Source: Nitrospinaceae bacterium (lineage in GTDB: Bacteria; Nitrospinota; Nitrospinia; Nitrospinales; Nitrospinaceae). From it: DNA of 64,000 bases. The translations under genes were made by a program, and so were the position numbers. Location of the stretch: positions 3,360,001-3,424,000 of the forward strand of contig OZ245011.1 in the NCBI GenBank assembly GCA_965223665.1, read 5' to 3'. Positions 31,118 to 58,895 of the stretch are shown here, one piece after another (within the stretch, counting starts at the first letter, position 1; every line of letters starts with the position of its first letter). A model generated the notes under the pieces. It saw only the letters and a list, made by a program, of their open reading frames with translations. It was not told the DNA's origin and made no database searches.

Positions 31118-31146
31118 TTAACCTTTCCCTAATGAAAATCTAATAA
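31118..31146 (+). promoter_or_regulatory. Putative Pho boxes upstream of pstS
   Basis: TTAAC, CTAAT, CTAAT units at exact 11-nt period (31118, 31129, 31140). Confidence 0.5.
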
Positions 31147-31189
31147 ATAATTATTAGGCTGAATGAAATAAAATTAGGAGAATTTGAAA

Positions 31190-32188: not shown

Positions 32189-32189
32189 G

Positions 32190-36070: not shown

Positions 36071-36084
36071 TAGAGGGATATATA

Positions 36085-36957: not shown

Positions 36958-36970
36958 AAGAGAGTGAATC

Positions 36971-42709: not shown

Positions 42710-43807
42710 TTACTGCATTTCCTCAATTAAGCTCATCAATTTCTCAAAACATTTTCCTTCTTTCTGGAGCCGAATTGCTAAATCAAAGGTGTTTTGTAGG
42801 TTAGTTTGCTTATGAAAATGAGATTTTAAGGTTGCAGCCTGATGTGCAATCATGACAGTAGCGGGACTGGAACCATTTTTAAGAGCTTGTTCGCCAAGTT
42901 GGGCAAGATTGGTCCGGGTTGCGGAGATTTCTTTTAGTTCCTCAAAGGCATTTTTGATTTTTCGCACCGTGGTTTCATTATAAACGGACTCAAAATATAT
43001 ACTAATATCTTTTGGCTCTTCCTCTTGGGAATGTATAAATAGCTTAGCCTTTTTATGAATCCCATAAAGAGTAGTTCCTTCCATTCCATTACCAATAATA
43101 ACTCTATTAAAGTCACTTAATTGAGCCACAGCCAACATGGGTTCTTCATAACCGGGATGAAAATAGTTTGTGGCTAAAAAATTCGTTTTTGCTTTTAAGG
43201 GCATTAACATTTTTTCAAAAGTGGCTAGCATAGGACGTTTTACAATTTCTTTACGTAAGTCTTGAAGTGAGTCCAGTTTGGGATGGCTTTGCTGAGTGCT
43301 CAAATAACCAAATCCATTCTGTTCAATAAGAATTTTCCTTTGTTCAAATGACGTGTTTTTGGGAACTCCATAATGATTGATCAGTAAATCTTCAAAAGTA
43401 ATTCCAAACTTTGGAGGTAAGGGTAAGCAAGAATGACCATAGGCCGGAAGTCCCATTTCAGCCAACACGGGCAAAGTGTAAAAGCCAAAGTATGGAATTC
43501 GCTGAAATCCATCAAACGCATCCGCAACCTGAAGGAGGCAATCTAGTTCTATGGATTGAATATGAGTGCTGGAATTTAAGGCTTTCCAGAAACCAATATT
43601 TTCTTCCAATGTTTCGCGTTTCATTCTAAGTGCAATGAGAAATAATCCGGATCTAACAACTGAAACTTTACCATCCAAAACTAAGGTTAATCCGTCCTGA
43701 GCTTCTTGCTCTGTTAGGTTTTTGCTCATGTTAGGGCCGGTGGCAACCTTTAAAAGATAACCCTTCATTCTTTCTTCTGGAGTTAAGTTAAATATTGAAT
43801 CATTCAT
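42710..43807 (-). CDS. Glycosyltransferase family 3 / TrpD-like (YbiB-type) protein
   Basis: KVATGP..SKNL, LRMKRET..E, R......R....T.EK, FHPGY, GMEG; canonical TrpD GTGGD motif absent. Confidence 0.7.
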   Translation of the reverse strand: MNDSIFNLTPEERMKGYLLKVATGPNMSKNLTEQEAQDGLTLVLDGKVSVVRSGLFLIALRMKRETLEENIGFWKALNSSTHIQSIELDCLLQVADAFDGFQRIPYFGFYTLPVLAEMGLPAYGHSCLPLPPKFGITFEDLLINHYGVPKNTSFEQRKILIEQNGFGYLSTQQSHPKLDSLQDLRKEIVKRPMLATFEKMLMPLKAKTNFLATNYFHPGYEEPMLAVAQLSDFNRVIIGNGMEGTTLYGIHKKAKLFIHSQEEEPKDISIYFESVYNETTVRKIKNAFEELKEISATRTNLAQLGEQALKNGSSPATVMIAHQAATLKSHFHKQTNLQNTFDLAIRLQKEGKCFEKLMSLIEEMQ

Positions 43808-43879
43808 AAATTCACAGATAACTGGTCTTAGGACTTTATTTCGAGTAAGATTATAGGTTTAATCCTTAAAATAAATTCA

Positions 43880-45595
43880 GTGGATACTAAAGCTATAAAT
43901 TCATTTCATTTCCAACACCCAAAGGAGCGGGAAGCTAAGGTATTATTGGTTTACCCAAGTACCCAGGATGTTGCGCTGGCCAATTTAGGCTTTCAAAGGG
44001 TGTATACCATTCTAAACAATTTAGATGGAGTCATTTGCGATCGATTTAGTCTCCCTCAGGGTTGGACCCCCGATCAGTCTACCTTAAAAGCTGATCAAAT
44101 GCGCTCTCATGATTTGGGTTTGTCCCCTCAAGAATTTGACATCATTGCTTTTTCTATTTCTTTTGAACCGGATTATCTCCATGTTGTAACTATTCTTAAG
44201 TATTTTAACATTCCAATAGATAGTAAGGAACGGGGATTAGAATTTCCGCTAATTGTTGCGGGTGGTTCTGCATTATTTATTAACCCCGAACCCCTTGCAG
44301 AAATAATGGACTTATGTTTTGTAGGAGAGGGAGAGGGATTGGCCAATGCATTTTTTAAGGAATTCACTGAAGGTTTTTGGAAAAGTAGAGATGAGTTATT
44401 AAGGAATTCAGAAAAAATTCCCGGGATTTACATCCCCAGGTTTTTCCAACCTGTTTACGAAGGAGAATATCAAGTAGACTTAAAACCCAAGGGTAGTTTT
44501 TCAGATAGGATAATTCGTCATTGGGTTCCGGAAAACTCTAAAGATCTTTGCACACATTCTGAGTTACATGATACCAGTTCGACTTTCAAAGATATGGCAT
44601 TGATGGAAGTGACTCGTGGTTGTATTTGGGCTTGCCGCTTTTGCACGGCAGGTTTTATTTACCGTCCACCTCGGGAACCGAACCTTGAAGACACATATAA
44701 TTCACTTTCGGAAGCTTTACATAATCAGGGCAAAGAAATGTCAACCATTGGTTTGGTGGGACCTTCAGTGACCGATCATCCAGAATTAATTCCATTAGCT
44801 CAACGGCTGGTTGAAGAGGGAAAGAAACTTTCTTTTTCTTCCCTACGAATGGAAACCTTGACAGAAGAGTTAGTGGATTTAATTTTACAAAGCGGTCAAA
44901 AAACTATCACAGTAGCTGTGGATGCACCCTCTGAACGAATGCGTGATGTCATAAATAAATCGGCTAGTGATGACTTTATTGTAGATAAATGTCGATTCCT
45001 TACTGAAAAAGGGATTTTGCATTTGAAGATTTATTCCATCATTGGCCTACCTTTGGAGCAGGAAGAAGATATTGACCAATTTATTGATCTTGTGAAATCT
45101 ATCCAGGGGGCATATGTGGATGCAAGTCGGTCTCGAGGAAAGATCGGAAGTATTACAATCAGTTTAAGCCCATTAGTTCCTAAACCAGGAACTCCATTTC
45201 AATGGCACCCTATGGAATCAGTTTCAGTTTTGAAAAAAAGATTTATGAAAGTACGTAAAGCTCTCAGTCGAATTCCAAATATTAATTTGTCTTTTGGTTC
45301 TCCTAATGAGGCTTATTTACAGACATTTTTATCTCGAGGTGACCGGAGGGCTTTAAATTTTTTTAAAGAATATTTATTGAATAATCATGATGCAAAACGC
45401 GCCTTGCAAAAAATGAATCCCCATCCAGACCATGTGGTTTATAGGCAATTCAATAAGGATGACTTTTTACCTTGGGACGTTATTGACCATGGTTATAGCC
45501 CAAATTTTTTATGGCAGGATTATCAAAGAGGATTGCGTGCAAAGCATACTCCTGTATGTGATACGGCTACTTGTAAAATTTGCGGAATTTGCTAG
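43880..45595 (+). CDS. B12-binding-like domain radical SAM protein
   Basis: LANLGF, FSISFE.D, EVTRGCIWACRFC (CxxxCxxC), VPKPGTPFQ, C-terminal C...C.ICGIC. Confidence 0.85.
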   Translation: MDTKAINSFHFQHPKEREAKVLLVYPSTQDVALANLGFQRVYTILNNLDGVICDRFSLPQGWTPDQSTLKADQMRSHDLGLSPQEFDIIAFSISFEPDYLHVVTILKYFNIPIDSKERGLEFPLIVAGGSALFINPEPLAEIMDLCFVGEGEGLANAFFKEFTEGFWKSRDELLRNSEKIPGIYIPRFFQPVYEGEYQVDLKPKGSFSDRIIRHWVPENSKDLCTHSELHDTSSTFKDMALMEVTRGCIWACRFCTAGFIYRPPREPNLEDTYNSLSEALHNQGKEMSTIGLVGPSVTDHPELIPLAQRLVEEGKKLSFSSLRMETLTEELVDLILQSGQKTITVAVDAPSERMRDVINKSASDDFIVDKCRFLTEKGILHLKIYSIIGLPLEQEEDIDQFIDLVKSIQGAYVDASRSRGKIGSITISLSPLVPKPGTPFQWHPMESVSVLKKRFMKVRKALSRIPNINLSFGSPNEAYLQTFLSRGDRRALNFFKEYLLNNHDAKRALQKMNPHPDHVVYRQFNKDDFLPWDVIDHGYSPNFLWQDYQRGLRAKHTPVCDTATCKICGIC

Positions 45596-45600
45596 TAAGT

Positions 45601-46515
45601 ATGGAAACGATAGACACTTTAGAAAAAATGAACAAGCTTCCAGCGGATCGCCGTTTTTTTGATATTAATGATTTGTGGTATTTCCCCAAACGGTGGGCCG
45701 TCCAATTTTTTTATCCTCTTCCAATTTCAGCGAATCAGATAACATTCCTTGCCTTAATCATGGGATTAATTTCTGCAGGAATATATTTTTGGGGAGGGAA
45801 TACTGCTCTCATATGGGGAGCTATCTTTTTATATCTGAAATCATTTTTGGATAATGTAGATGGTAACTTAGCAAGAGTTCGTGAAGAAGAATCCCGGTTA
45901 GGCCGATTTTTAGATTCCTTTTCGGATTTTGTAGTTGCTGTTCTTGTTTATGCAGCGGTAACTTGGAATTTATCCTTATTATCTTTGCAGCCAGGATACT
46001 ACTGGGCTTTAGGTGGGATGGCCTTGCTCAGCACTTTGATTCAGTGCAGTTATTGGGTTTATTATTACGTAAATTATACACAGTGGGTGGGAACTTATGG
46101 ATTAAATCGAGTCGATGAGTCTGTTACCGCTCAGGATAAAGAAAAATTAGAAACTGGAGAAATTTCCAGTATTACATTTTTCTTGCAGAGGTTTCATCAA
46201 TGGGTTTATGGGTGGCAAGATCGTTTAATCCAACAGTTTGATTTAATTTGTCGCCGTATTGCAGGTTATCAAGAGATAGAAAGGGAAAGAGAAATTTGGT
46301 TTGCTGATCAGAAATTTCTCAAGCTAATAGGACCCCTGTGTGTTTGTACGAATTCAATGGGGTTTGTGGTTTTTTCTTTGTTGGGAAAAATTGAGTTATT
46401 TTTTTTAGTTGTGGTAGTACTTGGAAACATCTATATGATTGGACTTTCAATCTTAAAAATTAGATGGTTTCGACGAAGTAAATTTAAATGGAAGGCAAAG
46501 GATCCTTCTTTTTAA
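45601..46515 (+). CDS. CDP-alcohol phosphatidyltransferase family protein
   Basis: ANQIT and DNVDGNLAR......GRFLDSFSD signature; ATG at 45601. Confidence 0.88.
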   Translation: METIDTLEKMNKLPADRRFFDINDLWYFPKRWAVQFFYPLPISANQITFLALIMGLISAGIYFWGGNTALIWGAIFLYLKSFLDNVDGNLARVREEESRLGRFLDSFSDFVVAVLVYAAVTWNLSLLSLQPGYYWALGGMALLSTLIQCSYWVYYYVNYTQWVGTYGLNRVDESVTAQDKEKLETGEISSITFFLQRFHQWVYGWQDRLIQQFDLICRRIAGYQEIEREREIWFADQKFLKLIGPLCVCTNSMGFVVFSLLGKIELFFLVVVVLGNIYMIGLSILKIRWFRRSKFKWKAKDPSF

Positions 46516-46535
46516 GCCCTCTTAAGATTTTGGTA

Positions 46536-47195
46536 CTAATTTCTTCTGTAATCAAAATTAGTTTCTTTAAATTTTTTGGATTGGAAAACCAGTTTAATTT
46601 TTAGCCTAAGATATTCCATTAAAAATTCGTGACGTTTTAATACATCTATTTCTTCCAGAAAAAACTTTTTTTGATCCAAAGACATATCGAATAGATAAGA
46701 AATGCGGTCTACAGCTTGGCTTAGGGTTTTACAATCTGATAAATCTGGTTTCACTTTTTGTGAGTTTTTTTCAGGTAGGGAATCGATAAATTGTCTAAAA
46801 GTGCCCATTAAACTATTCAATAAAGTATTATGGGGTTCCAATGGTTGATCGTTTACAGGATTTAGCCACTCTACTTCTGCTTGACGGTAAGAAGTGTCTC
46901 CAAATTCATTAATTATTTTGAATCTCTTTTGCCCCTTCAAAACTATATCAAATTTACCATCATTTAAACGGTTCCATTTTTCTAAATTTCCTGCACATCC
47001 TATAGGCTGAACTTCGGGTTTATTATAATATTCATTTTCCCATCCAGGCTTAAGGAGAACCATTCCTATCCACTGATTGCTTTTAATAGAATCTTCAACC
47101 ATGTCACGGTATCTAGGTTCAAAAATGTGAAGGGGTAGCGGAGTGTCCGGAAAAAAAACTGAAGAAGGTAAAGGAAAAATGGAAATTCGATTCAT
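46536..47195 (-). CDS. LON peptidase N-terminal (substrate-binding) domain protein
   Basis: IFPL..VFFP...LPLHIFEPRYRDMV, IGCAG, DG.FDI...G..RF. Confidence 0.88.
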   Translation of the reverse strand: MNRISIFPLPSSVFFPDTPLPLHIFEPRYRDMVEDSIKSNQWIGMVLLKPGWENEYYNKPEVQPIGCAGNLEKWNRLNDGKFDIVLKGQKRFKIINEFGDTSYRQAEVEWLNPVNDQPLEPHNTLLNSLMGTFRQFIDSLPEKNSQKVKPDLSDCKTLSQAVDRISYLFDMSLDQKKFFLEEIDVLKRHEFLMEYLRLKIKLVFQSKKFKETNFDYRRN

Positions 47196-47427
47196 TTTTT
47201 TCTTTTTATTAAGTCGGAAAAGCTATTTTTAATAAATTTGGTTGTATAGGGATTTTAACATCCTTAAAATTAAGGAAAAAGGGTTTCCTTATAAATTAGA
47301 ATAAACCATAAATACCCTTTTTAGGGTATTTTGTTAAATGAAATAAATCCTTCTGCGATTTAATGAATCCACATTATGTTACAAAAAGCATTTTTTCGGC
47401 CCTTTTTAATCTTAAAACCGTATAGCT

Positions 47428-48828
47428 ATGATCGTTGTACCTGAAAATATTTGTGCAGAAATACAGGGATCTCTTATTCAATCAGGCCTCTATTCGTTAG
47501 AGCATAATGATCCTGTAAAAAATTGGAGAATAGCGGCAGAGCCCTATAAAGTTTCCTCTCAAGATTTAGACTTTTTCAAAAAATTAGGGGGAATTTTATT
47601 AGAGTTTTATTCGGCTCTAAATAGCTTATACCTGGAAAGCTATAAGGGGAAAGCTCCTGAATGGGTAGCAGATTATTTGGATCGTGGCAAGCCTTCCGAC
47701 TTAGTAGAATATTCTAGAATGAAAAAATTTAAGAATATTCTACCTGGAATAATTCGGCCGGATATCATGGTAAAGGAAAAGGGGTTTGCGGTTACAGAGT
47801 TGGATTCAGTCCCAGGAGGGTTTGGATTAACGGCCCATTTAATGAAAGCATATTCCAATCATGGATGGGAAATTTGTGGTAGTGAGAATGATATTACAGA
47901 ATCATTTTTTAAAATGTTAGGAAATTCTTCAAATGTAACCAATCCAACTGTTGCCATTATTGTTTCTGATGAGGCTGTGGATTACCTTGCAGAAATGGAA
48001 TTTTTAAGTAAGGAGTTAAGAAAAAAAGAACGCAAGGTTTATGTATTGCAACCGAGACAGGTAATATTTTCTGAAGAGGGATTGTTTTTTGAAAATGAAG
48101 GTAAAAAAGTTTGCATTGATATTGTTTATCGATTTTTTGAATTATTTGATTTGAAAAATATTCCTAAGTCTGAATTATTTATGTATAGCAACAAAAAAGG
48201 AAAAATTAATACCACGCCACCCTATAAGCCGTATTTGGAAGAAAAGTTGAATTTTGCCTTGTTTCATCATCCTGCTCTCAGCGTTTGGTGGGAAAAACAC
48301 CTTAAATCTGAAACTTTTGAGACTTTAAATCATCTAATTCCAAAAAGTTGGATTCTGGATAACCGGCCTTTACCTCCTCAAGGAGTGATTCCTAACTTGA
48401 AATTAAGGAATAAGGCAGTCCAGGATTGGGCAGAGTTAAGTTCCCTATCTCAAAAGGAACGTGAACTGGTTATTAAGCCCTCAGGATTTTCCCCAGAGGC
48501 TTGGGGAAGTCGGGGTGTAACCATAGGCCATGATGTTTCAAGTGAAATTTGGCAGGAAACATTAAGTGAAAGTTTAGATCGATTTGAAAGCCAACCTTAT
48601 ATTTTGCAGGAATTTCATAAGGGAAAAAGAATTCAAATGAGTTATTGGGATCCACAAACAGATACAATGGAAGAAATGCAGGGTAGAGTTAGGCTCACTC
48701 CTTATTATTTTATTGTTAACCAAGAGGCCCAATTAGGCGGTATATTGGCGACCATTTGTCCTCAGGATAAAAAGAAAATCCATGGAATGGTTGATGCGAT
48801 TATGGTGCCTTGCGCGGTCGAAAATTAA
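47428..48828 (+). CDS. Putative circularly permuted ATP-grasp amide ligase (GspS/eukaryotic GSH synthetase-like fold)
   Basis: IRPD...TELDSVPGG, VYRFFE, EEK, LVIKPSG...WGSRGV, YILQEF, in the order seen in permuted ATP-grasp enzymes. Confidence 0.65.
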   Translation: MIVVPENICAEIQGSLIQSGLYSLEHNDPVKNWRIAAEPYKVSSQDLDFFKKLGGILLEFYSALNSLYLESYKGKAPEWVADYLDRGKPSDLVEYSRMKKFKNILPGIIRPDIMVKEKGFAVTELDSVPGGFGLTAHLMKAYSNHGWEICGSENDITESFFKMLGNSSNVTNPTVAIIVSDEAVDYLAEMEFLSKELRKKERKVYVLQPRQVIFSEEGLFFENEGKKVCIDIVYRFFELFDLKNIPKSELFMYSNKKGKINTTPPYKPYLEEKLNFALFHHPALSVWWEKHLKSETFETLNHLIPKSWILDNRPLPPQGVIPNLKLRNKAVQDWAELSSLSQKERELVIKPSGFSPEAWGSRGVTIGHDVSSEIWQETLSESLDRFESQPYILQEFHKGKRIQMSYWDPQTDTMEEMQGRVRLTPYYFIVNQEAQLGGILATICPQDKKKIHGMVDAIMVPCAVEN

Positions 48829-48844
48829 ATAACAATTATTAATT

Positions 48845-49084
48845 ATGATACGACTATATAATATTGATGGTTGCGGTTATTGTAGTTTAGTTCGTAACAC
48901 TTTAAAAAATTTGGAAATTGAGTACGAAAAAATTGATGTTCCCTGGCCACACCATTTACGAAAAGAAGTGCAAGAAGTTTCAGGACAAACTACAGTGCCG
49001 GTATTGGTTGATGGGGATGTTGTTTTGGCTGATGAATATGAAATAATTGATTACCTGAAAACAACCTATTCTAAGAAAATTTAA
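48845..49084 (+). CDS. Glutaredoxin/GST-N-like thioredoxin-fold protein
   Basis: CGYC, SGQTTVPVLVDG, I..YL. Confidence 0.88.
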   Translation: MIRLYNIDGCGYCSLVRNTLKNLEIEYEKIDVPWPHHLRKEVQEVSGQTTVPVLVDGDVVLADEYEIIDYLKTTYSKKI

Positions 49085-49106
49085 TCTCCCAAACAAAAGG
49101 ATATCC

Positions 49107-50240
49107 ATGGAGCTTTGGCAAAAGCAATTAAGCGGCAGCGTAGTTAAAGTACAGGACTTGCCATTTATATCCCGTTCTCCAGAGTACTTAGAGAAATTGA
49201 AAAAGGTATCTGAGGTTTTTCCTATAAGGATTAATTCATATTTTATGGATCAGATTAAACAGGAAAATGATCCTCTTTGGAAACAGGTTGTTCCCACTTT
49301 AGAAGAGTTAGACGATTATTTAGCAATGGAGGAGTCATTGGAAGCCGATCCATTGAATGAAGAAAAAGATATGCCTGTTCCCGAGTTGGTGCATAGATAT
49401 CCTGATCGGGTTTTATTAATGCTAAATAACCAATGTCCAATTATTTGCCGCTTTTGTACTCGAAAAAGAAAAATTGGTTTTCCTGGTATTGTGACTAGAG
49501 AGACTTTACGTCAAGGAATTGAGTATATCGCAGATCATCCCGAAATTCGGGATGTAATTATGTCCGGGGGGGATCCCTTATTAGTGCCTGATAAGGAATT
49601 AGAACGAATATTGCGATCATTACGAGAAATCCCCCATCTGGAAATAATTAGAATAGGGACCAGGGTTCCTGGGACGTTGCCAGATCGTGTTACACCTGAA
49701 CTCTGTGATATGTTAAAGAAGTACCATCCCATATACTCCAACTTACATTTTAACCACCCGGATGAAATTACACCGCAAGTGGAGCTAGCTTGTAATCGAA
49801 TGGCGGATGCGGGCATTCCATTGGGAAGCCAAACGGTTTTGTTAAAGGGGGTGAATGATGATGTGGAGATAATGAAACAACTGGTTCAAAAGTTGTTAAA
49901 AATTCGAGTTAAACCATATTATCTATACCAAGCGGATATGACTATGGGAACCGACCATTTTCGAACTCAGGTTGAGAAAGGGTTAGAGATCATTCGTGGA
50001 TTGCAGGGGCATACTTCTGGAATGGCAGTACCTTATTTCGTAATTGATACGCCAGGCGGTGGTGGTAAGGTACGTTTGTTACCCGACTCGATTGTAGAGT
50101 TTAGTGAAGAAGAAATTATTGTGAAAAATTACGAAGGCAAGATTTTCAAGTATCCCCAACCTGCAAAACAAACTCCCACTAAAAAAACGATTTCATCCCC
50201 TGTTTCATCCTCGCAAAGTAAGATTTGTGAGATGGCTTAA
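49107..50240 (+). CDS. kamA: KamA-family radical SAM lysine 2,3-aminomutase
   Basis: LVHRYPDRVL, CPIICRFCTRKR, SGGDP, HFNHP, QTVLLKGVND, YYLYQAD, VIDTPGGGGK. Confidence 0.9.
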   Translation: MELWQKQLSGSVVKVQDLPFISRSPEYLEKLKKVSEVFPIRINSYFMDQIKQENDPLWKQVVPTLEELDDYLAMEESLEADPLNEEKDMPVPELVHRYPDRVLLMLNNQCPIICRFCTRKRKIGFPGIVTRETLRQGIEYIADHPEIRDVIMSGGDPLLVPDKELERILRSLREIPHLEIIRIGTRVPGTLPDRVTPELCDMLKKYHPIYSNLHFNHPDEITPQVELACNRMADAGIPLGSQTVLLKGVNDDVEIMKQLVQKLLKIRVKPYYLYQADMTMGTDHFRTQVEKGLEIIRGLQGHTSGMAVPYFVIDTPGGGGKVRLLPDSIVEFSEEEIIVKNYEGKIFKYPQPAKQTPTKKTISSPVSSSQSKICEMA

Positions 50241-50323
50241 ATATAAATTTCATTCCCCTTTGACATTGGATAGAGAATTCTAATATATTAAATAATTACA
50301 ATGATTATTAGAGGCTTCTCTTT

Positions 50324-50947
50324 GTGAGTTTCATCAAAAACAATTTGATTGCGGGATTGTTAATAACAATTCCAATTGTCTTGACGTATATTCTCTTTTC
50401 TTTTGTAATTAATGCTTTAGACAGGTGGATGGCTCCCCTGATTTCAACCGTAATTATAAAGTTGCACTTACCTTTACCCGAAGACTTTTATTTACCGGGG
50501 CTTGGTGTTGTAATAGTGATTTTCTTCATTTTTCTTATGGGTTTATTGGGGACCAATTATTTTGGAGAAAAGTTAGTTCAAACAGGTGAGGCGTTGTTGA
50601 ATAAGACTCCCTTTGTTCGGGGTATATACAATACCATTAAGCAGGTTATAGAGACTATTTCTAAAACTAAATCGAATTCCTTTAAAGAATTAGTGTTGGT
50701 GAAATACCCTCACCAATCTCTTAGCATGATTGGCTTGGTTGCTGGCACAACTAAAGGGGAAGTGGCTACTAAATCAGAAGATGAATTAATTAATGTGTTT
50801 CTGCCCTTATTGCCAAATGTAACATTAGGATTTTACGTTGTGATCCCCAAAAAGGATGTGACTCCCTTAGAAATGGGTTTGGAGGAAGGAATGAAATATT
50901 TAATGTCATTTGGGATAGTTGATAAGGATCAATCCAGGGCAAAATAG
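50324..50947 (+). CDS. DUF502-family membrane protein
   Basis: AGLL..IP..LT, P.VR.IY..IKQ, VLV.YP, VFLP..PN...GF. Confidence 0.85.
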   Translation: MSFIKNNLIAGLLITIPIVLTYILFSFVINALDRWMAPLISTVIIKLHLPLPEDFYLPGLGVVIVIFFIFLMGLLGTNYFGEKLVQTGEALLNKTPFVRGIYNTIKQVIETISKTKSNSFKELVLVKYPHQSLSMIGLVAGTTKGEVATKSEDELINVFLPLLPNVTLGFYVVIPKKDVTPLEMGLEEGMKYLMSFGIVDKDQSRAK

Positions 50948-50967
50948 ATTTCCAATTTGAAGATTTG

Positions 50968-51570
50968 TTATTGTCTTACTTTTCGGCTGTCCCGTTTTCC
51001 GGCAATTTTTTCACTGATATTTTTGGCTGATCTGGTCTTCATTTTTGCAAGTACTTTTCCGGCAATTTTACTCTTCATTTTAGAAATTATTTGAATTGCC
51101 ACGCCTTGGTCCATTGCCTCTAAAAGAGTTGCAGCTTCGGTTGGTTTCATAGCGGAGTATACTTTTACAAGAGATTTTACATTTTTTTCAATTAAATCTC
51201 TTTTGATTCCTACTTGCTCTTCACTTCTTGCCAGGGCTTCTTCAATTTTTTTTAAGTCCTTTAAAACTTTTTCTTCAAGGATTTTTAAATTACTTTCCCT
51301 GAGTAATAATTCCTCCTCACGTTTTTTAAGGTCTTCATTTTTCTTTGCAATCATTTCAAGCATTCGCAGGGTTTCAGGATTTAACGATGAAGGATTTTGA
51401 GGAAGTTTAGGTTTTTCTTTCAGGGGTTCTTTAATTGGAGATTCAGTGGTTGATTCAAGTTCCGCATTATTTGGGTTTTTCCCCTGTTCTGTTGATATAT
51501 CAGAATCTTGTGTAAAGCCTGGTGTAGACAGCCCAAATAAAACAAGGAATAAAAATATAATAATTCTCAT
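50968..51570 (-). CDS. MotE/FlbB-like flagellar protein (MgtE-N-like C-terminus)
   Basis: Signal/TM, coiled coil, LVKVYSAMKP.EAA.LL..MD; follows fliJ. Confidence 0.75.
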   Translation of the reverse strand: MRIIIFLFLVLFGLSTPGFTQDSDISTEQGKNPNNAELESTTESPIKEPLKEKPKLPQNPSSLNPETLRMLEMIAKKNEDLKKREEELLLRESNLKILEEKVLKDLKKIEEALARSEEQVGIKRDLIEKNVKSLVKVYSAMKPTEAATLLEAMDQGVAIQIISKMKSKIAGKVLAKMKTRSAKNISEKIAGKRDSRKVRQ

Positions 51571-52004
51571 AGGGACCTCTTATGCCATCGAGAGGATGCA
51601 ACCTCATCAAAAAAAGCTGTTTCTTGTTTCCTTTTTTTTTGTTGAAATTGAATTAAAGCCTGATCTTTTAGAATTTCCAATGTTTTGCGTTTTCGCATTG
51701 CTTCAATCAACTCATCTCTTTTTTCTGAAGCTTTTTTTTCTATTTCAGATATTATTTGACCTTGAGTTTGTTCCTTGCTTTTGATGGCTTGAAAATAATT
51801 TCCATAAAGCATTAATGTGTTCGATTCTGTGGGTGCTTCGAGCATTTTTACAAATTGTTTTTTATTATGATTTTCTTCATTTTCCATATCAGATAATGCA
51901 TTCTGTTGTTGGACCAAATGGGATCTGACCACTCCAAAATCTTTTTGAATCAATTCTTCCTGATTTTTCCTTAATCTTAATAAAGTTTCGAAGCGAAATT
52001 TCAT
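51567..52004 (-). CDS. fliJ: Flagellar export chaperone FliJ
   Basis: FRFETLLRLR, coiled coil, RKTLEILK...E...FDE; directly after fliI. Confidence 0.88.
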   Translation of the reverse strand: MKFRFETLLRLRKNQEELIQKDFGVVRSHLVQQQNALSDMENEENHNKKQFVKMLEAPTESNTLMLYGNYFQAIKSKEQTQGQIISEIEKKASEKRDELIEAMRKRKTLEILKDQALIQFQQKKRKQETAFFDEVASSRWHKRSL

Positions 52005-52007
52005 TAT

Positions 52008-53330
52008 TTAATTCTTAATTAAATGATTCAGTTGTTGAACACTTTCTTCCAAGGAAATCGACTCCTGAATTCCTTGTCTTAGATATTCATTAAATTTTTC
52101 AACTTTATTGATTGCCAGGTCAATTTTGGGATTACTTCCTGGGGTATAAGCTCCAATATTGATTAAATCTTCAGCTTCCCTGTAAGTGGCTAATATGTCT
52201 TTGAACTTCATGGAAACTTCATGATGTTCAGGTTTAATAACATCTATCATTAAACGACTAATACTTTCTAATATGTCAATTGCTGGATAGTGGTTGTGGG
52301 AAGCTAAACGACGAGATAATACAATGTGGCCATCAAGTATGGCGCGAACTGCATCAGATATCGGTTCATTGAGGTCGTCTCCTTCTACTAAAACCGTATA
52401 AAGACCTGTAATGGTTCCATTACCCTTCGAAGTCCCTGCCCGTTCCAGCAATTTGGGAAGTAGGGAAAACACAGAAGGTGTATAGCCCCGGGTAGTTGGA
52501 GGTTCACCGACAGAAAGACCAATTTCTCTCTGAGCTAATGCAAACCGGGTAACCGAATCCATCATTAAAATTACGTTTTTTCCCATATCTCTAAAATATT
52601 CTGCGATGGTTGTGGCAATGAAAGCTCCTCGCAACCGAACCAGGGGAGGCTGGTCAGAAGCAGCTGCCACAACTACTGACTTTTTTAAACCATCAGGACC
52701 CAAGTTTTCATCAATAAATTCTTTTACTTCTCGTCCCCGCTCTCCAATTAGTGCAATTACATTTATTTCCGCCTCTGTATTCCGTGCAATCATTCCCATT
52801 AATACAGATTTTCCCACACCGGTACCTGCCATTATTCCTATTCGCTGTCCACGAGCGCATGTGATTAATCCATTCAATGCGCGAATACCTACATCGAGAG
52901 GGCGTGATATTGGTGATCTTTCTAAGGGATTTAGGGGGGTGCCTATTATGGAATACTCCTTTCCCATTGGGATAGGACCCTTGTTATCCAAGGGGTTTCC
53001 ATTCCCATCAATCACTCTACCCAATAATCCCGGGCTAACATTTAAAGTAGGAGATTCTTCTTTTGCTTCAACGATACTTCCGGGAACCAATCCAGCCATA
53101 TCACCCAAAGCCATAAGCAATATTTTGTTATCACGGAAACCCACGACCTCAGCATCCACTGATTTTTTGTTTTGCGGTGAATGGATGGTACATATACTTC
53201 CAAGAGAAACTGCAGGTCCATCTCCTTCTAATATAAGTCCGGTAACACGATTTATTCGGCCACTTTTTTTTACCAAAGGCAAACTATTTATATAAGAATT
53301 ATATTTTTTTAAATCGATCATGTTTTGCAT
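52008..53330 (-). CDS. fliI: Flagellar export ATPase FliI
   Basis: GQRIGI.AGTGVGKS, GERGREV, MDSVTRFA, GEPPTTRGY, LDGHIVLSR; ATG at 53330 or 53321 more likely than the TTG at 53354. Confidence 0.96.
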   Translation of the reverse strand: MQNMIDLKKYNSYINSLPLVKKSGRINRVTGLILEGDGPAVSLGSICTIHSPQNKKSVDAEVVGFRDNKILLMALGDMAGLVPGSIVEAKEESPTLNVSPGLLGRVIDGNGNPLDNKGPIPMGKEYSIIGTPLNPLERSPISRPLDVGIRALNGLITCARGQRIGIMAGTGVGKSVLMGMIARNTEAEINVIALIGERGREVKEFIDENLGPDGLKKSVVVAAASDQPPLVRLRGAFIATTIAEYFRDMGKNVILMMDSVTRFALAQREIGLSVGEPPTTRGYTPSVFSLLPKLLERAGTSKGNGTITGLYTVLVEGDDLNEPISDAVRAILDGHIVLSRRLASHNHYPAIDILESISRLMIDVIKPEHHEVSMKFKDILATYREAEDLINIGAYTPGSNPKIDLAINKVEKFNEYLRQGIQESISLEESVQQLNHLIKN

Positions 53331-53337
53331 TAAATAA

Positions 53338-54162
53338 CTACTCGTTTGTTTCAAATGAAGTCGATTCTTCAGGAATGGGGGCAGTATTCAGTATTTTTTC
53401 AATTTGATCATGTAGGGTTTCAATTCCAGCGTGAATGGTTCCAAAATTTGAGTCTATTAAGCAATGGCCTTGAGGAACGGAGGTGTGTCCCTCTATTTTT
53501 AAATTATGGACATCCTGAAATTGTTCTTTTAACTCTGGTTTATACTTATCTACATAACCCTTGTCAGTAGGATGGACTTTAATAGTCATTGTTTCTCGGT
53601 CGAGAATGGATTGGACGGCAAGTCGAATGATATCTTGAATACTGTTTTCTTTATTTTCTAGTTCAACCTGTAAAATTTTCTTTGAAATTCCCACAATCAT
53701 TTCTAACATTTCCCGCTCGACTTTAGGAAACATTTGTTTTCTAAACTTACTAAGTTCTTCTATCAAGTTTTGGGTAGTAGTGATAAAGGGCATGAATTCT
53801 TTTGCAGCATTAGATTCTCCTGCTTTAAAACCTTCAGCAAAACCTTCGTCATAGCCATCTTTTTTGGATTGAGACCGGATATTGTCAGCTTGAACTTTTA
53901 TTTTCTCCATCGCGTCTGCAAAAATTTCCTTAACACCTTCTCTGGCTTTTTTTACATTGCTTACCTCAAAATTTCTAGCTTGTTCTGAGTCAAAAGTGAA
54001 CTTCCGTTTTACAGATTGAGTATTGGAAACAAATTCATTTAGTTGAAATGGTGTTGGGTTTTCAGATTGTATATCGGGGTTTTCTTCAATAGGGGTGGTC
54101 TCGTTGAGTGAAGAATTTGAAAAATCATTACTACGTTTAAACAAGCTCTTCCCCTCCGCCAC
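53338..54162 (-). CDS. fliH: Flagellar assembly protein FliH
   Basis: GxxxG repeats (DGYDEGFAEGFKAG), IKVHP.D, G.CLID...G.I.A; between fliG and fliI. Confidence 0.88.
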   Translation of the reverse strand: MAEGKSLFKRSNDFSNSSLNETTPIEENPDIQSENPTPFQLNEFVSNTQSVKRKFTFDSEQARNFEVSNVKKAREGVKEIFADAMEKIKVQADNIRSQSKKDGYDEGFAEGFKAGESNAAKEFMPFITTTQNLIEELSKFRKQMFPKVEREMLEMIVGISKKILQVELENKENSIQDIIRLAVQSILDRETMTIKVHPTDKGYVDKYKPELKEQFQDVHNLKIEGHTSVPQGHCLIDSNFGTIHAGIETLHDQIEKILNTAPIPEESTSFETNE

Positions 54163-55150
54163 CTATTACGAGTTTGCCTTCTTCTTCCAGGCGTTTGCAT
54201 ATAGCAACAATCTTTTGCTGGCATTTTTCAACTTCACTAACTCTTGTGGGTCCAAGAGATTCTAAGTCTTCCCTCAGCATGGTGGCAGCCCTTTCAGACA
54301 TATTAGAGAAAATTTTATTTTGCAAATCTTCGCTTGCAGTTTTAAGGGAAATTAAGAGGTCTTCTTGATTAACTTCCTTAAGGACTAGTTGTAAGCCGTT
54401 GTCGTCGATTTTAAGAATATCTTCAAAAGTAAATCGCAAGTTTCGAATTTCATTTGCCATATCCGGATCTACTTCATCCATGGCCGTTAATATAGAAGTC
54501 TCAGTGGCACGATCCAGGGATCCCATAATTTGTGCCGCTTGAACTACGCCTCCCATTTTGCTTCCAGATACTGCTCCAGAGGAACGAAACTCAGATTGTA
54601 ATGCTTCATCTAATTCTCGTATAACTTGTGGAGAAACTCTTTCTAAAGTTGACAGTCTATGTAAAATTTCCATTCTAGACTCTTCAGGCATTTCTCTTAG
54701 AGTAGCGCTACTAACTTGTGCTTCAAGATGGGCCATGATGATTGCAGCAGTTTGAGGATGTTCATTTTTTAGAAAAGTTGCAATTACTTTAGGTTCTAAC
54801 ATTCGGACCGTTTCTAAACCACCTCCTAAATCTTCTCCTGGGGTTGTAATATTATTGAGTATTTCGGAGGCTTTAACGGGGTCCATAGCCCGCATCAAAG
54901 TGGTCTTCAAAAAATCTAATCCTGGGATACCCAATCCCCCTGTCCCTGTTTCGACGTTTTCGTAAAATTCTTTTGTGACATTATCCATGACAAACATGTC
55001 TACATCCCCAAGGGCAGACATGTAGTTACCAATGGTTTGGATTTCACGTTCTTCCATTTCAGCCAAAATTTTTGCAGCACCTTCCTCACCCAAGGACATC
55101 AGAAATATTGCGGCTTTTTCTGGACCTGTATATTTTCTATCTTGGGCCAT
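54137..55150 (-). CDS. fliG: Flagellar motor switch protein FliG
   Basis: KAAIFLMSLG, EHPQTAA, FTFEDI, NMSERAA. Confidence 0.96.
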   Translation of the reverse strand: MAQDRKYTGPEKAAIFLMSLGEEGAAKILAEMEEREIQTIGNYMSALGDVDMFVMDNVTKEFYENVETGTGGLGIPGLDFLKTTLMRAMDPVKASEILNNITTPGEDLGGGLETVRMLEPKVIATFLKNEHPQTAAIIMAHLEAQVSSATLREMPEESRMEILHRLSTLERVSPQVIRELDEALQSEFRSSGAVSGSKMGGVVQAAQIMGSLDRATETSILTAMDEVDPDMANEIRNLRFTFEDILKIDDNGLQLVLKEVNQEDLLISLKTASEDLQNKIFSNMSERAATMLREDLESLGPTRVSEVEKCQQKIVAICKRLEEEGKLVIGGGGEELV

Positions 55151-55165
55151 AATTTGGGTTCCTTA

Positions 55166-56749
55166 CTAGGATCGATCTTTTAACCATTTTCGGATAATTC
55201 CAGCAGCATATTTAGGATCCGCTTCTACAAATTCATTGACGGATTGACGCATGTCCGTCATTTCTTTATTTGCGCGTTGGATTCGCTTCTTTTCTTCTTC
55301 AGCCTCTAACTCTTCATGGCTGGGTAAAGGTTCTTCTTCAGGGACCACTTCTACACTCGTTGAAACCCATCGAACCATGGGCATTAGAATTTTTAATATG
55401 AATATTAATAATAGTATAACAGCGCCTAGAATTTTTGCACCGGTGATGATCATATCCCAACGCTCTTCAGAGGCCAATTTTTCAGCTCTTTTCAGGTCTT
55501 CAGATTTATCAAACTGTACATTTTCAAGTTGGATTTTATCTCCCCGTTTTTCATTGAATCCAACGGCTGTTTTAATAATTTCTAAAAACTTTGCCATCTC
55601 TTCGCTGGACCGTGGTTTGTATTCGGGGGGATCTCCTTGAAGAAGACCATCTACCAAAACGCTTACGGATAGCCTTTTTATTTCACCTGATGTTTCAGTG
55701 ATATGTTTAATAACTTTATTAATTTCATAATTGAAAGTCTGTTTTTCTTTCGATTTTTGTGCAGGATTGCCACCCGTTGTCTGACCACCCTGTCCACCAG
55801 GGACCAGAGACTGAACTCCAGGAACTCCACCAGCAGGGGAAGAACCAACGGACGATTCATTGGAATTTTGTTCACTGCGAACCACCTGAGAATCAGGATC
55901 AAAGATCTCTTCTGTCCGTTCAACTTTGTCAAAGTTAATTTCTGCTGTAACTTTTGCAATTACTTTCTCCGGGCCTAAGGCTTCTTCAAACATTCCAATA
56001 ATGCTTGCTTCTAATTCTTGTTCGACTTTTCTTTTATACTTGTAATTAGATGCAGTAAAAAGTGCGGATTCGGAGGAAGTTCCCTTTTGTCCTGAAAGTA
56101 AATTCCCGTTAAAGTCTACCAAGACTACGTTATTAGCAGGCAATCCTTCAACACTGCTTGATACTAGATGGACAATCCCTTGAATTTGATGTTCGGTAAG
56201 AGATTTACCTGATCGGATTTTTAACATAACTGAGGCTTTTCCCTCAGGTTTATCTTTTAGAAAAATTTCTCCTTTTGGAATTACTAAATGAACACGCGCT
56301 TGATCAACAGCATCAAGGGATTTAATGGTTCTAGAAAGCTCCCCTTGCAGAGCCCGTTGGAAATTTAATTTTTGAATAAATTCAGTCATTCCTAAAGGGG
56401 TGTCTTCAAATAATTCCAATCCAACTTCATTCCCTTCAGGTAAACCTTTGCTGGCAAGATTGATGCGAGTTTCGTGAACCACTGAAGCAGGGACACGAAT
56501 ATTTTTACCGTTGTTTGAAAGTTCATATTCAATATTTCTTGTTTTTAATTCTTCAACAACTGCAGAAGCATCTTCAGGGGATAAATTTGCAAATAGTAAC
56601 TGGTGGTCAGGAGATTGGATCCAGATCACCATGGTCAATAGAGAAGCAACAAATGCGGCCGCCAAACCTAATGCGATAGCTTTATTCGTAGGAGAGAGGT
56701 CCTTAAATCGGGTAATTAAATTTTGAATGAACTGGAGGAAATTGTCCAT
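55166..56749 (-). CDS. fliF: Flagellar M-ring protein FliF
   Basis: GLP....G.ELF, QRALQGELSRTI, ARVHLVIP, ASV, NYEINK, RLSVSVLVD, GF...RGD. Confidence 0.95.
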   Translation of the reverse strand: MDNFLQFIQNLITRFKDLSPTNKAIALGLAAAFVASLLTMVIWIQSPDHQLLFANLSPEDASAVVEELKTRNIEYELSNNGKNIRVPASVVHETRINLASKGLPEGNEVGLELFEDTPLGMTEFIQKLNFQRALQGELSRTIKSLDAVDQARVHLVIPKGEIFLKDKPEGKASVMLKIRSGKSLTEHQIQGIVHLVSSSVEGLPANNVVLVDFNGNLLSGQKGTSSESALFTASNYKYKRKVEQELEASIIGMFEEALGPEKVIAKVTAEINFDKVERTEEIFDPDSQVVRSEQNSNESSVGSSPAGGVPGVQSLVPGGQGGQTTGGNPAQKSKEKQTFNYEINKVIKHITETSGEIKRLSVSVLVDGLLQGDPPEYKPRSSEEMAKFLEIIKTAVGFNEKRGDKIQLENVQFDKSEDLKRAEKLASEERWDMIITGAKILGAVILLLIFILKILMPMVRWVSTSVEVVPEEEPLPSHEELEAEEEKKRIQRANKEMTDMRQSVNEFVEADPKYAAGIIRKWLKDRS

Positions 56750-56792
56750 TTTTTGAGAGGATTATATTAAGAAATATTGAATGAAAAAGTAA

Positions 56793-57230
56793 TTATCTGC
56801 CTAATTCTATTGCTCGCATTGCCATCGATTTTGCTGCATTTATTGCTTGGATATTGGCTTCAAAGGATCGAGAGGCATTGATTAAGTCAACCATTTCCTG
56901 GACCATATTTATATTTGGAAAAGCTACATAGCCTTCTTCATTTGCATCAGGGTGACTTGGATTGAATACTAATTTGGGTTGCGTTTGGTCCTCGGAGATG
57001 TTTGTGGTGATTACTTGTCTTACCTGGTCAGCAAGTTCTTCGTTTAATTGCGAGGAAAAGTCATCGCTTATTGGAAGGGAAGAGACGACAATATCTTTTC
57101 TTCGATAGGGTCCACCTTCAGGGGTTCGCGTGGTCTCAATATTGGCTAAGTTACTTGAGATGGTTTCCATTCGCTTTCTCTGAACCGTTAGGCCTGAAGA
57201 GCTAATATTTATCGATGTAGAAAATTCCAT
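56793..57230 (-). CDS. flgC: Flagellar basal-body rod protein FlgC
   Basis: SGL..QR.RM..ISSNLAN, PYRRK, PSHPDA...GYV..PN, EMVDLI.ASRSFEAN. Confidence 0.96.
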   Translation of the reverse strand: MEFSTSINISSSGLTVQRKRMETISSNLANIETTRTPEGGPYRRKDIVVSSLPISDDFSSQLNEELADQVRQVITTNISEDQTQPKLVFNPSHPDANEEGYVAFPNINMVQEMVDLINASRSFEANIQAINAAKSMAMRAIELGR

Positions 57231-57303
57231 AAGAGCGTCCTTCCATTGGGCTTAGTTAAAAATCACCAAAATCTAACAATTTCAAATGGTTATAATGATT
57301 TAT

Positions 57304-57320
57304 TAGCAAAACTTATACCA
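57304..57320 (-). promoter_or_regulatory. Sigma54 promoter of the flgC-fliFGHIJ operon
   Basis: Minus strand TGGTATAAGTTTTGCTA (GG-N10-GC), about 75 nt upstream of flgC. Confidence 0.75.
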
Positions 57321-57459
57321 AATTATTCGATGGGTACAAGTTATTGGTAATGGGGAGATCGATCCCAAAATCTCTTGAAAAAAAGGACTTTATAGTGCAA
57401 TTATTTAGATTGGGTCTGAGGATTTCTATTAAGGTAGGGAATTAGGGAAGGAAAATACT

Positions 57460-57491
57460 GTCAGTAGTTTGACAATGAGGCAAATTTTGAC
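57460..57491. promoter_or_regulatory. Putative enhancer-binding-protein (FleQ/FlrA-like) sites
   Basis: GTCAGTAGTTTGAC and GGCAAATTTTGAC palindromes about 140-170 nt upstream of the sigma54 promoter. Confidence 0.55.
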
Positions 57492-57518
57492 TTTAAGAGA
57501 AGGATATAGAGAATGATA

Positions 57519-58895
57519 TTAGGTTTGATGATTTTCAGTTTGGTATTCATTGAGTTTATTTCTTAAAGTTCGAATGCTAATTCCCAATTTTTCCGCAGCG
57601 CGGGTTTTATTCCCGGATTCTTCGTCCAGAGTTTTGTAAATAAGAACCCGTTCCATATCTTGAATGGTTCCTTGAAAGTTTCCTATAACCTTACCTTTTT
57701 GGTTAGAAGGAATCGTATTTTCTTCTAAAAATAAATGAGACGGATTCAGAGTATTTTCTTGGCAAATTAATACCGCTCGTTCCATTATATTTTCCATTTC
57801 ACGGACATTCCCTTTCCAATAATATTTTTTTAAGGTATTAATAGCTTCAGCTGAAAGTTGAGTTAATTGTTTCCTATTTGCCAAACTGTGCTTCTTAAGA
57901 AAATATTCCGCTAAAGCAGGGATGTCTTCAGGCCTTTCCCTTAGAGGGGGTAAATTTATTGGAATCACATTTAAGCGATAATATAAGTCCTCACGAAATT
58001 TGTTCTCTTCGGTAAGTTTTTTAGGATCCCGGTTAGTGGTAGCAATAACTCGGACATCCACGGGGATGGGCTCACGACCACCTACTTTGTCAACCTCATG
58101 TTCTTGCAATACTCTTAAGAGTTTAGCTTGCAGAGCCATACTCATTTCAGTCACTTCATCTAGAAGAATAGTCCCTTTATTTGCAAGTTCAAACTTTCCC
58201 TCCTTTTTATTTATGGCCCCAGTGAACGCACCTTTTTCATGCCCGAATAACTCTGATTCAAGTAAACCTTCTGGAAGGGCAGCACAATTTACTGCTAGAA
58301 AGGGTTGGTCTGAACGCGGGCTGCATTGGTGAATATATCGAGCAAACATTTCTTTTCCAGTTCCTGTTTCGCCAGCAATGAGAACGGTTGATTTACTGTA
58401 TGCAATATTTTCTACAAACTTAAGGAGTTCTAACATTCTGGGATTACATGTAATTATTTCTCCCTTTTTTTCTAAGATTACTGGTTTGGGAGAAGATGTA
58501 GATTTTGAAGAAGAAGTGGTTTTATTTTTTAAAGCGCGTTTTACAGCTGAAATAAGAATGTCTACAGAAAAAGGTTTTAAAAGGTAGTCAAAGGCTCCTT
58601 CCTTCATCAACTCAACTGCATTATCAATGGTTCCAAAGGCGGTCATCATGATTACAGGTGTTTGAGGAGATAATTTTTTGATCTGACTTAAAAGTTCGTG
58701 ACCGGTCATTTGGGGCATTTTGACATCAGAGATCACCAAATCGAAATCATGGTTTTTAAATTGTTCAATTGCTTCTTTTCCATTTTCTGCGGCCTTAGGT
58801 TCTAGACCTTCTCTGATAAGAGCTTCAGTTAAAGCCGCACGCATTTCTGATTCGTCATCAACAATTAAAATTTTATTGGAAATATTTTTTTTCAT
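57519..58895 (-). CDS. Sigma54-dependent response regulator (FleR/FlrC-like)
   Basis: REC (VDDE, DVKMP), GETGTGKE, ESELFGHEKGAFTGA, FREDLYYRL, Fis HTH (LGISIRTLRNKL). Confidence 0.93.
   Translation of the reverse strand: MKKNISNKILIVDDESEMRAALTEALIREGLEPKAAENGKEAIEQFKNHDFDLVISDVKMPQMTGHELLSQIKKLSPQTPVIMMTAFGTIDNAVELMKEGAFDYLLKPFSVDILISAVKRALKNKTTSSSKSTSSPKPVILEKKGEIITCNPRMLELLKFVENIAYSKSTVLIAGETGTGKEMFARYIHQCSPRSDQPFLAVNCAALPEGLLESELFGHEKGAFTGAINKKEGKFELANKGTILLDEVTEMSMALQAKLLRVLQEHEVDKVGGREPIPVDVRVIATTNRDPKKLTEENKFREDLYYRLNVIPINLPPLRERPEDIPALAEYFLKKHSLANRKQLTQLSAEAINTLKKYYWKGNVREMENIMERAVLICQENTLNPSHLFLEENTIPSNQKGKVIGNFQGTIQDMERVLIYKTLDEESGNKTRAAEKLGISIRTLRNKLNEYQTENHQT

Follow-up and report, generated by a model that had tools for sequence, protein, structure and literature searches.

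A candidate operon for beta-lysine amide conjugation in Nitrospinota, encoding an ATP-grasp ligase-like protein, a glutaredoxin-like protein and a KamA-family enzyme

Three genes in the genome of a Nitrospinaceae bacterium raise the question why a putative ATP-dependent amide ligase should be encoded directly in front of a glutaredoxin-like protein and a lysine aminomutase-like enzyme. The genes lie in a stretch of 64,000 nucleotides (contig OZ245011.1 of assembly GCA_965223665.1, positions 3,360,001 to 3,424,000), which is called the window below and to which all coordinates refer. An earlier reading of the bare sequence (the original prediction) held that the ligase may join beta-lysine to a thiol peptide or protein kept reduced by the glutaredoxin (Grx), giving a new thiol, osmolyte or protein modification. 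Its observations are confirmed: the three genes are co-oriented, the gaps between them measure 16 and 22 nt, and every quoted motif is found in the list of open reading frames (ORFs) and the translations. Its interpretation is partly supported. We consider the chances evenly balanced that the trio is one operon, conserved in Nitrospinota, whose products make a small beta-lysine amide conjugate.

Fold and family of the ligase candidate

The first gene of the ORF list at this locus (47428..48828, plus strand, ATG start) encodes a protein of 466 aa. An AlphaFold (AF2) model, built from a family alignment of 58 sequences, reached a pLDDT of 96.0 and a pTM of 0.94, and a Foldseek search of the PDB with this model gave 104 matches at E<=1e-3 with a top probability of 1.00. 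All matches listed are glutathione synthetase (GS), homoglutathione synthetase, a GS-like nematode effector, the fungal ligase Cp1B, putative or real glutathionylspermidine synthetase (GspS), YgiC, YjfC or trypanothione synthetase. They include human GS (8FBZ, E 5.9e-17, TM 0.64), yeast GS (1M0W, E 5.5e-15, TM 0.67), potato GS (5OES, E 2.5e-15 to 7.7e-15, TM 0.62-0.63), soybean homoglutathione synthetase (3KAJ and 3KAL, E 8.3e-16 and 7.7e-15, TM 0.55 and 0.63), Cp1B (9CJN, E 2.7e-14, TM 0.61), a putative GspS (3N6X, E 1.4e-13, TM 0.59), Gss of Escherichia coli (2IO8, E 3.6e-11, TM 0.56), YjfC (7UK6, E 4.7e-11, TM 0.57), YgiC (7UK8, E 1.9e-10, TM 0.58) and trypanothione synthetase (2VPM, E 1.8e-7, TM 0.50), at sequence identities of 9-15%. 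The model thus supports a three-domain ATP-grasp fold of the GS/GspS type, over the whole chain and in the same sequential order, and here the fold that the original prediction had read from a few motifs is borne out. The domain order is presumably permuted relative to classical ATP-grasp enzymes. In this fold a carboxylate is phosphorylated and then attacked by an amine, as described in the available text of PMC12568646, and the 466-aa protein is, judging from its predicted structure, a candidate ATP-dependent amide ligase.

At the level of sequence the protein stands apart. No family in Pfam or NCBIfam matched it at E<=1, no PDB chain was matched by its sequence or by the family profile at E<=10, and it belongs to none of the profiles PF03917/PF03199, PF03738 and PF14403. 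Its own family is large: 6991 of 8000 scored candidates are relatives at E<=1e-3, corresponding to at least 6991 clusters at 90% identity, and an exhaustive search among representatives at 50% identity recovered 1030 clusters at E<=1e-3, 634 at <=1e-10 and 201 at <=1e-30. The family is spread over low- and high-GC genomes. All source names among the matches listed read 'hypothetical protein', and the six matches that carry an organism name are assigned to Nitrospina, Nitrospinae or Nitrospinales. Known profiles barely touch it: among 58 family members, two matched GSP_synth weakly (best E 4.2e-4), two matched CP_ATPgrasp_2 weakly (best E 6.5e-3), and none matched the Pfam models GSH_synthase or GSH_synth_ATP. 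An hhalign comparison of the family profile with E. coli Gss was not significant, with a probability of 0.4%. The ligase defines a new sequence family, although its fold is known. Cluster-level leads from the Atlas point the same family to unnamed nearest clusters in Verrucomicrobiota and Nitrospirota and also to Myxococcota; one of the nearest named clusters has GSP_synth in 18% of its members.

The motifs of the protein comprise R110-P111-D112, ELDSVPGG (124-131), IKPSG...WGSRG (349-363) and YILQE (391-395). In an alignment of 83 members, K88, R110, D112, E124, D126, E182, E189, R235, E238, D241, E271, E272, K273, R345, K350, G353, Q394, R422 and H452 each recur in 78 members or more, with R110 in 82, D112 in 83, E124 in 82, D126 in 82, K350 in 81 and G353 in 83; in the glycine-rich loop, W359 is kept in 79 and G360 in 81. 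Such near-invariant charged residues are what the sequences of an active enzyme would be expected to show. Some of them may correspond to the ligands of Mg, ATP and substrate in GS or GspS; the non-significant local hhalign alignment to Gss, which is co-linear with the residues that we take to be catalytic in GspS, provides a lead only.

Nine members of 492-587 aa contain no extra Pfam domain. Two distant representatives, P0245 and P0267, begin with an additional stretch of about 150 aa, rich in Ala, Gly and Arg, in which Pfam recognises no domain either. On visual inspection, these stretches give the impression of premature start calls in high-GC genomes and not of true fusions. A tblastn search of plasmids gave no match. 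None of the three proteins of the trio had a match in PADLOC, and therefore a defence system is not indicated.

Among enzymes of known function, the eukaryotic-type glutathione and homoglutathione synthetases (8FBZ/2HGS, 1M0W, 5OES, 3KAJ/3KAL) share with the ligase the three-domain fold, the domain order and the size (442-481 aa versus 466 aa), at E 6e-17 to 1e-14 and TM 0.62-0.67 over about 510 columns. Homoglutathione synthetase shows that the GS fold can take a beta-amino acid as amine. These enzymes differ from the ligase in sequence: identity is 12-15%, and the ligase matches neither their Pfam models nor any PDB chain by sequence or profile. To our knowledge, no gene context with kamA and grx is known for them. 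The second group, formed by Gss (2IO8), YgiC/YjfC and trypanothione synthetase, shares the fold class with lower similarity (E 3.6e-11 to 1.8e-7, TMq 0.50-0.58). The enzymes of this group couple a cationic amine to the carboxylate of a peptide, and the same chemistry is proposed here for beta-lysine. In contrast to Gss, the 466-aa protein is a single fold unit without the N-terminal amidase domain, and the protein encoded in the window has itself no GSP_synth match. The absence of the amidase excludes only a bifunctional GspS, because YgiC and YjfC lack this domain too. The third relative, Cp1B, is a ligase of fungal E-64 biosynthesis. According to the available text of PMC12568646, Cp1B was once annotated as a 'hypothetical protein'; its architecture is homoglutathione-synthetase-like, although no sequence identity to characterised ATP-grasp enzymes can be detected. 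It turned out to be an ATP-grasp ligase and is thus a precedent for the unannotated protein in the window, but it is fungal, uses epoxysuccinate and an alpha-amino acid, and has an unrelated gene context.

With glutathione and homoglutathione synthetases as top structural matches, the protein might simply act together with the adjacent Grx as a non-orthologous glutathione (or gamma-Glu-Cys-X) synthetase. KamA would then be a mere neighbour, its beta-lysine destined, for example, for a solute or for EF-P. The nearest named Atlas cluster, a bacterial 'glutathione synthase' with PF03199/PF03917 (score 0.95), points in this direction, as does the resemblance of the adjacent protein to both glutaredoxins and the N-terminal domains of glutathione S-transferases (GST). 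In addition, cultured Nitrospinae lack catalase and superoxide dismutase and have highly conserved glutaredoxins according to the available text of PMC8026999. However, not one of the 58 family members matches the Pfam profiles of glutathione synthetases, and a TM of about 0.65 at 12-15% identity is no closer than the similarity to Cp1B (0.61), whose substrates differ greatly. Nor would a glutathione synthetase account for the retention of kamA 22 nt downstream of the Grx gene throughout Nitrospinota. We therefore regard this explanation as unlikely and turn to the enzyme that would supply beta-lysine to the ligase.

The aminomutase and the glutaredoxin-like protein

The third gene (49107..50240, plus strand, ATG start; ORF list) encodes a protein of 377 aa with the motifs YQAD (274-277) and VIDTPGGGGK (312-321). 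The original prediction had called it a KamA with both lysine-binding Asp residues. Family membership held, with 304.8 bits against the cut-off of 199.2 for TIGR00238 (KamA family), and both Asp positions were found in the expected places, but every named equivalog cut-off was missed. The best-scoring equivalog model, AblA (TIGR03820), gave 441.7 bits versus a cut-off of 525.4, followed by glutamate 2,3-aminomutase (386.7 versus 650), arginine 2,3-aminomutase (334.8 versus 600) and EpmB (247.4 versus 369.3). Pfam recognises Radical_SAM together with LAM_C, of whose 127 profile positions only the first 64 are matched. The alignment to the solved lysine 2,3-aminomutase of Clostridium (2A5H) has E 3.5e-114 and is gap-free around the active site: C110/C114/C117, D277, D314 and K321 align to C125/C129/C132, D293, D330 and K337. 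None of these six residues varies among the 20 Nitrospinota sequences compared. D293 and D330 of 2A5H are, we assume, the residues that hold the epsilon-ammonium group of lysine, and in glutamate 2,3-aminomutase both are presumably replaced; no supporting passage was found for either point in the papers searched. Since the active-site residues including both Asp are kept, Lys is the most likely substrate, and the protein is, as far as the alignment can tell, most probably a lysine 2,3-aminomutase making beta-lysine. This name is a well-founded inference and not a family assignment, because no named equivalog cut-off was reached.

Some features of this protein deviate from the clostridial enzyme. 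D252 aligns to C268 of 2A5H, which we take to be a zinc ligand there, and the C-terminal region that presumably supplies the other zinc ligands is lacking. The AF2 model of KamA, based on 20 close sequences, was poor (pLDDT 65.6, below 50 for the tail 356-377) and was not used for a fold search. The tail itself is Ser/Lys-rich and of low confidence, and ends in a Cys (C374) that is invariant in 20 of 20 Nitrospinota sequences. This conserved Cys, encoded beside the gene of a dithiol Grx, might provide a redox contact between KamA and Grx.

The second gene (48845..49084, plus strand, ATG start; ORF list) codes for 79 aa with the CxxC active site C10-G-Y-C13. Two Pfam families match it, GST_N_3 at 3.1e-14 (53.5 versus 22 bits) and Glutaredoxin (PF00462) at 4.8e-13 (49.5 versus 22.9 bits), in agreement with the earlier description as a CGYC glutaredoxin. 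All NCBIfam subfamilies compared scored below their cut-offs: Uxx-star (46.7 versus 66), YruB (43.3 versus 88.55), mycoredoxin (38.5 versus 89.5), Grx3 (30.8 versus 90) and NrdH (21.1 versus 85.75). The best PDB matches are the N-domain of a zeta-class GST (1E6B, 6.3e-6) and a bacterial glutaredoxin (2MZC, 1.6e-5), and the Atlas leads place the nearest clusters in Nitrospinota and Nitrospirota. By these profile matches the protein is a dithiol glutaredoxin or GST-N-terminal-like protein of the thioredoxin fold.

Two known systems pair a KamA-type enzyme with a partner acting on beta-lysine, and each suggests a different product for the trio. In AblA/AblB the aminomutase is encoded beside a beta-lysine-capping enzyme, and AblA is also the best equivalog for the third gene. 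Here this gene scores below the AblA cut-off, and an ATP-grasp ligase and Grx take the place of the acetyltransferase of the GNAT type. By analogy, the ligase could stand in for AblB, and a beta-lysine amide would serve as compatible solute in place of N-epsilon-acetyl-beta-lysine. Such a product would contain no thiol, and the Grx would only protect the radical SAM (S-adenosylmethionine) enzyme. This is formally a sub-case of the reading that we favour and is kept apart since the predicted product differs. AblA and AblB make N-epsilon-acetyl-beta-lysine as a salt-induced solute (available text of PMC3543383), and the hosts of the trio are marine, in line with such a role. However, the osmoprotection described for Nitrospinae in the available texts of PMC8026999 and PMC5029188 comprises glycine betaine, ectoine/hydroxyectoine and sucrose, and these texts do not mention lysine-derived solutes. 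An ATP-consuming ligase would also be a costly means of capping an amine, and this explanation offers no specific role for Grx. A solute of this kind appears unlikely, and we rate it as a doubtful candidate.

The second system, EpmB/EpmA, combines a KamA-family enzyme with one that consumes ATP to form a beta-lysyl amide. EpmA differs from the partner found here in being a paralogue of lysyl-tRNA synthetase and not an ATP-grasp protein, and efp is not nearby. By this analogy the ligase could modify a protein with beta-lysine, the target being EF-P (in an EpmA-like manner), the Grx-like protein or some other protein. Protein modification by ATP-grasp enzymes has precedents in RimK and LysX, which counts in favour of this possibility. 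KamA-type enzymes also supply the beta-lysine for EF-P in the EpmA/EpmB system (available text of PMC2821294). On the other hand, the KamA encoded here scores much better against AblA (441.7 bits) than against EpmB, efp is absent from the window, and the structural relatives listed all act on small molecules. We hold protein modification to be improbable. The original prediction had noted that the known partners of beta-lysine are not adjacent, and a Pfam scan agrees: none of the 58 window ORFs scanned encodes a GNAT/AblB protein, EpmA, EF-P, a gamma-Glu-Cys ligase or lysine-fermentation proteins.

Gene order and linkage in Nitrospinota

The gap between the ligase and Grx genes spans 16 nt (48829-48844) and that between the Grx gene and kamA 22 nt (49085-49106). 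A consensus scan detected nothing terminator-like in either gap, and promoter-like matches inside the trio were only weak (9/12), numbering 13 versus 17.5 expected from shuffled sequence. The strongest promoter-like site (11/12) lies at 50260-50289, just past the kamA stop and before a DUF502 gene. Because the gaps are short, internal terminator-like sites are absent and the internal promoter-like matches weak, the layout fits a single transcript as far as such signals can be read. Upstream, a region of 232 nt (47196..47427, plus strand) separates the ligase gene from a divergent LON-N-domain gene (46536-47195, minus strand). The promoter of the operon probably sits in this region; the consensus scan found no strong sigma-70-like site there. 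Across 46400-51200 no Rfam family was detected at E<=1, and hence no lysine or SAM riboswitch that would tie the leader to lysine. The GC content (0.34-0.40) and GC at third codon positions (GC3, 0.24-0.36) of the trio fall within the range of nine neighbouring genes. All three ORFs are real genes and not chance ORFs, given the family relatives of the ligase, the match to 2A5H, the Pfam Glutaredoxin score, and the neighbour-like GC and GC3.

Conservation of this arrangement was observed directly in a second genome. A contig scan with the single ligase protein gave 94 pattern matches and one relative, a locus (L001) in a metagenome-assembled genome (MAG) of Nitrospinaceae. The ligase is 88% and the Grx-like protein 95% identical there, the intergenic region 47196..47427 is 87% identical to its counterpart, and the three genes, the gaps and the flanking genes are all as in the window. 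This close relative with its full synteny adds little and is not independent evidence. Further linkage was assessed by a proxy, in which the ligase matches (119) and the KamA matches (120) listed were paired by exact size of the longest contig and by source. Thirteen pairs coincide exactly in both, one of them being the chromosome of Nitrospina watsonii, whereas 400 control offsets of 1-200 bases gave 0.9 coincidences on average and six at most. Eight of the 13 pairs are on contigs of 3.8-7.5 kb, where the ligase gene and kamA fit only if they are close together. When the window is added as a 14th pair, the pairwise distances of the ligases and those of the KamA proteins correlate with r = 0.87, a value reached by none of 5000 shuffled pairings. 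The matched ligase and KamA sequences therefore come from the same genomes. The pairing persists up to a ligase distance of 0.46 (about 54% ligase identity), and all 18 KamA matches with an organism name belong to Nitrospinota. We infer that the pairing of ligase and kamA recurs across Nitrospinota, as seen directly in one MAG and through the proxy on 13 other contigs.

Such recurrence might also arise without any common function, if the three genes had no functional relation and had stayed side by side through shared descent in a single phylum. The direct linkage evidence is indeed entirely from Nitrospinota, and the flanking genes are syntenic in the MAG locus too. Gaps of only 16 and 22 nt and the absence of internal signals speak against mere neighbourhood, and so does the persistence of the pairing on 13 further contigs at ligase distances of up to 0.46. 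We therefore consider this explanation very unlikely and prefer to interpret the trio as one operon.

Two features at its borders deserve mention. Within the divergent intergenic region between the LON-N and ligase genes, a perfect palindrome of 20 nt (47311-47330) has arms of 7 nt and a T5/A-rich centre. It is unique in the window, with one match at <=3 mismatches versus 0.03 expected, and is partly kept in the MAG locus, where both arms are altered. It scored as terminator-like on the minus strand and could be an operator or a hairpin. On the other side, a gene for a DUF502 membrane protein (50324-50947) follows 83 nt after kamA, downstream of its own aforementioned promoter-like site of 11/12, and occupies the same place in the MAG locus. 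The DUF502 protein is a possible candidate for a further part of the unit, for example an exporter.

Proposed function, surrounding genes and significance

If the trio acts as a unit, the following sequence of reactions may be envisaged. The KamA-family enzyme, equipped with a [4Fe-4S] cluster, SAM and pyridoxal phosphate (PLP), would shift the alpha-amino group of L-lysine to yield beta-lysine, a step that is supported by homology. The ligase, to judge from its fold, would then use ATP-Mg to convert a carboxylate to an acyl phosphate, and attack by an amine would release the amide, ADP and phosphate. Beta-lysine from the neighbouring KamA would be one of the two substrates of the ligase, an assignment suggested by the conserved adjacency and by nothing else, which we consider about equally likely to be right or wrong. 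Most probably it would be the attacking amine and correspond to the glycine, beta-alanine or spermidine of the structural relatives, and the product would be a small beta-lysine amide conjugate. The least certain step concerns the CGYC Grx/GST-N-like protein, which might use a thiol-bearing product as cofactor or might keep the oxygen-sensitive KamA reduced in a microaerophilic host.

The more specific form of this proposal is that Nitrospinota make a new cationic low-molecular-weight thiol, in which beta-lysine is joined to the carboxylate of gamma-Glu-Cys, or directly to Cys, and the Grx serves as the dedicated redoxin. With gamma-Glu-Cys, the product would be, by analogy, the beta-lysine counterpart of homoglutathione. 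The resemblance of the ligase to GS and homoglutathione synthetase, the precedent of a beta-amino acid acceptor and the GST-N-like Grx encoded between the other two genes favour a thiol among the conceivable conjugates. As an identification of the product we regard it as quite unlikely.

Several points weigh against the conjugation of beta-lysine by this operon. The ligase has no significant sequence relation to any characterised enzyme, and substrate sites are therefore not transferable from known enzymes; beta-lysine is tied to it solely by adjacency within one phylum. The linkage data all come from Nitrospinota, so that shared descent could partly explain the adjacency, and the ligase family also occurs in other phyla, as the Atlas leads to Verrucomicrobiota, Nitrospirota and Myxococcota indicate. 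Fusions of the ligase with KamA or Grx were absent among 5002 longer candidates, which is weak evidence. Another basic amino acid could be the substrate of KamA, whose AblA score lies below the cut-off, and the case for co-transcription consists of the short gaps and the lack of strong promoter- and terminator-like sites within the trio.

The wider surroundings of the trio consist, on the upstream side, of genes for a GDSL lipase, a Glycos_trans_3N protein, a radical SAM protein, a CDP-alcohol phosphatidyltransferase and the LON-N protein, and on the downstream side of the DUF502 gene and a flagellar block with FliJ, FliI, FliH, FliG, FliF and a rod protein. At 42710-46515, the Glycos_trans_3N-domain protein (minus strand) is followed by the radical SAM protein with Radical_SAM_N2, whose gene overlaps that of the CDP-alcohol phosphatidyltransferase by 16 nt. 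This segment is syntenic in the MAG locus and may represent an unusual lipid head-group pathway. The flagellar block (50968-58895, minus strand) covers flagellar export and the basal body, with an MgtE_N-like protein, FliJ, a FliI-type ATPase, FliH, FliG, FliF and the rod protein, and the organism therefore appears motile. Genes for a sigma-54 activator and a PAS histidine kinase come next. Farther away, a gene segment at 5058-7541 contains a fusion of 607 aa between an FGE-sulfatase domain and a DsbD-type transmembrane domain, adjoining a protein of the AhpC/TSA-redoxin family, and the two might form a redox pair of the envelope. Also of interest, in a presumed nitrite oxidiser, is a gene of the cytochrome P460 family (15834-16448). 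A complete phosphate-uptake block (28529-37702) comprises a response regulator, a PAS/HAMP histidine kinase, a PBP_like_2 binding protein, two unusually long permeases (754 and 539 aa), an ABC ATPase and PhoU.

In the literature searched, which did not include bioRxiv supplements, an ATP-grasp ligase has not been connected with a glutaredoxin and a lysine aminomutase, and no paper mentions an aminomutase in Nitrospina; a survey of amidoligases from 2009 might contain an earlier prediction. The words lysine and glutathione were not found in the available texts of the Nitrospinae genome papers PMC8026999 and PMC5029188, nor 'aminomutase', 'glutaredoxin' or 'glutathione' in the supplement files available for PMC8026999. 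The arrangement of an ATP-grasp ligase with Grx and kamA is thus not described in the literature searched and makes a testable lead. The ligase family is large, has no Pfam or NCBIfam model and consists of 'hypothetical' proteins among the matches listed, and one biochemical assignment would therefore annotate thousands of genes. If the proposed function is correct, the ligase would be a new ATP-grasp biocatalyst that forms amide bonds with a beta-amino acid. Nitrospinota carry out most of the nitrite oxidation in the oceans. A beta-lysine conjugate, be it a thiol or a solute, would fill a gap in the redox or osmotic physiology of this phylum, and if the conjugate were a thiol, it would serve the dominant nitrite oxidisers of the ocean as their principal thiol buffer.

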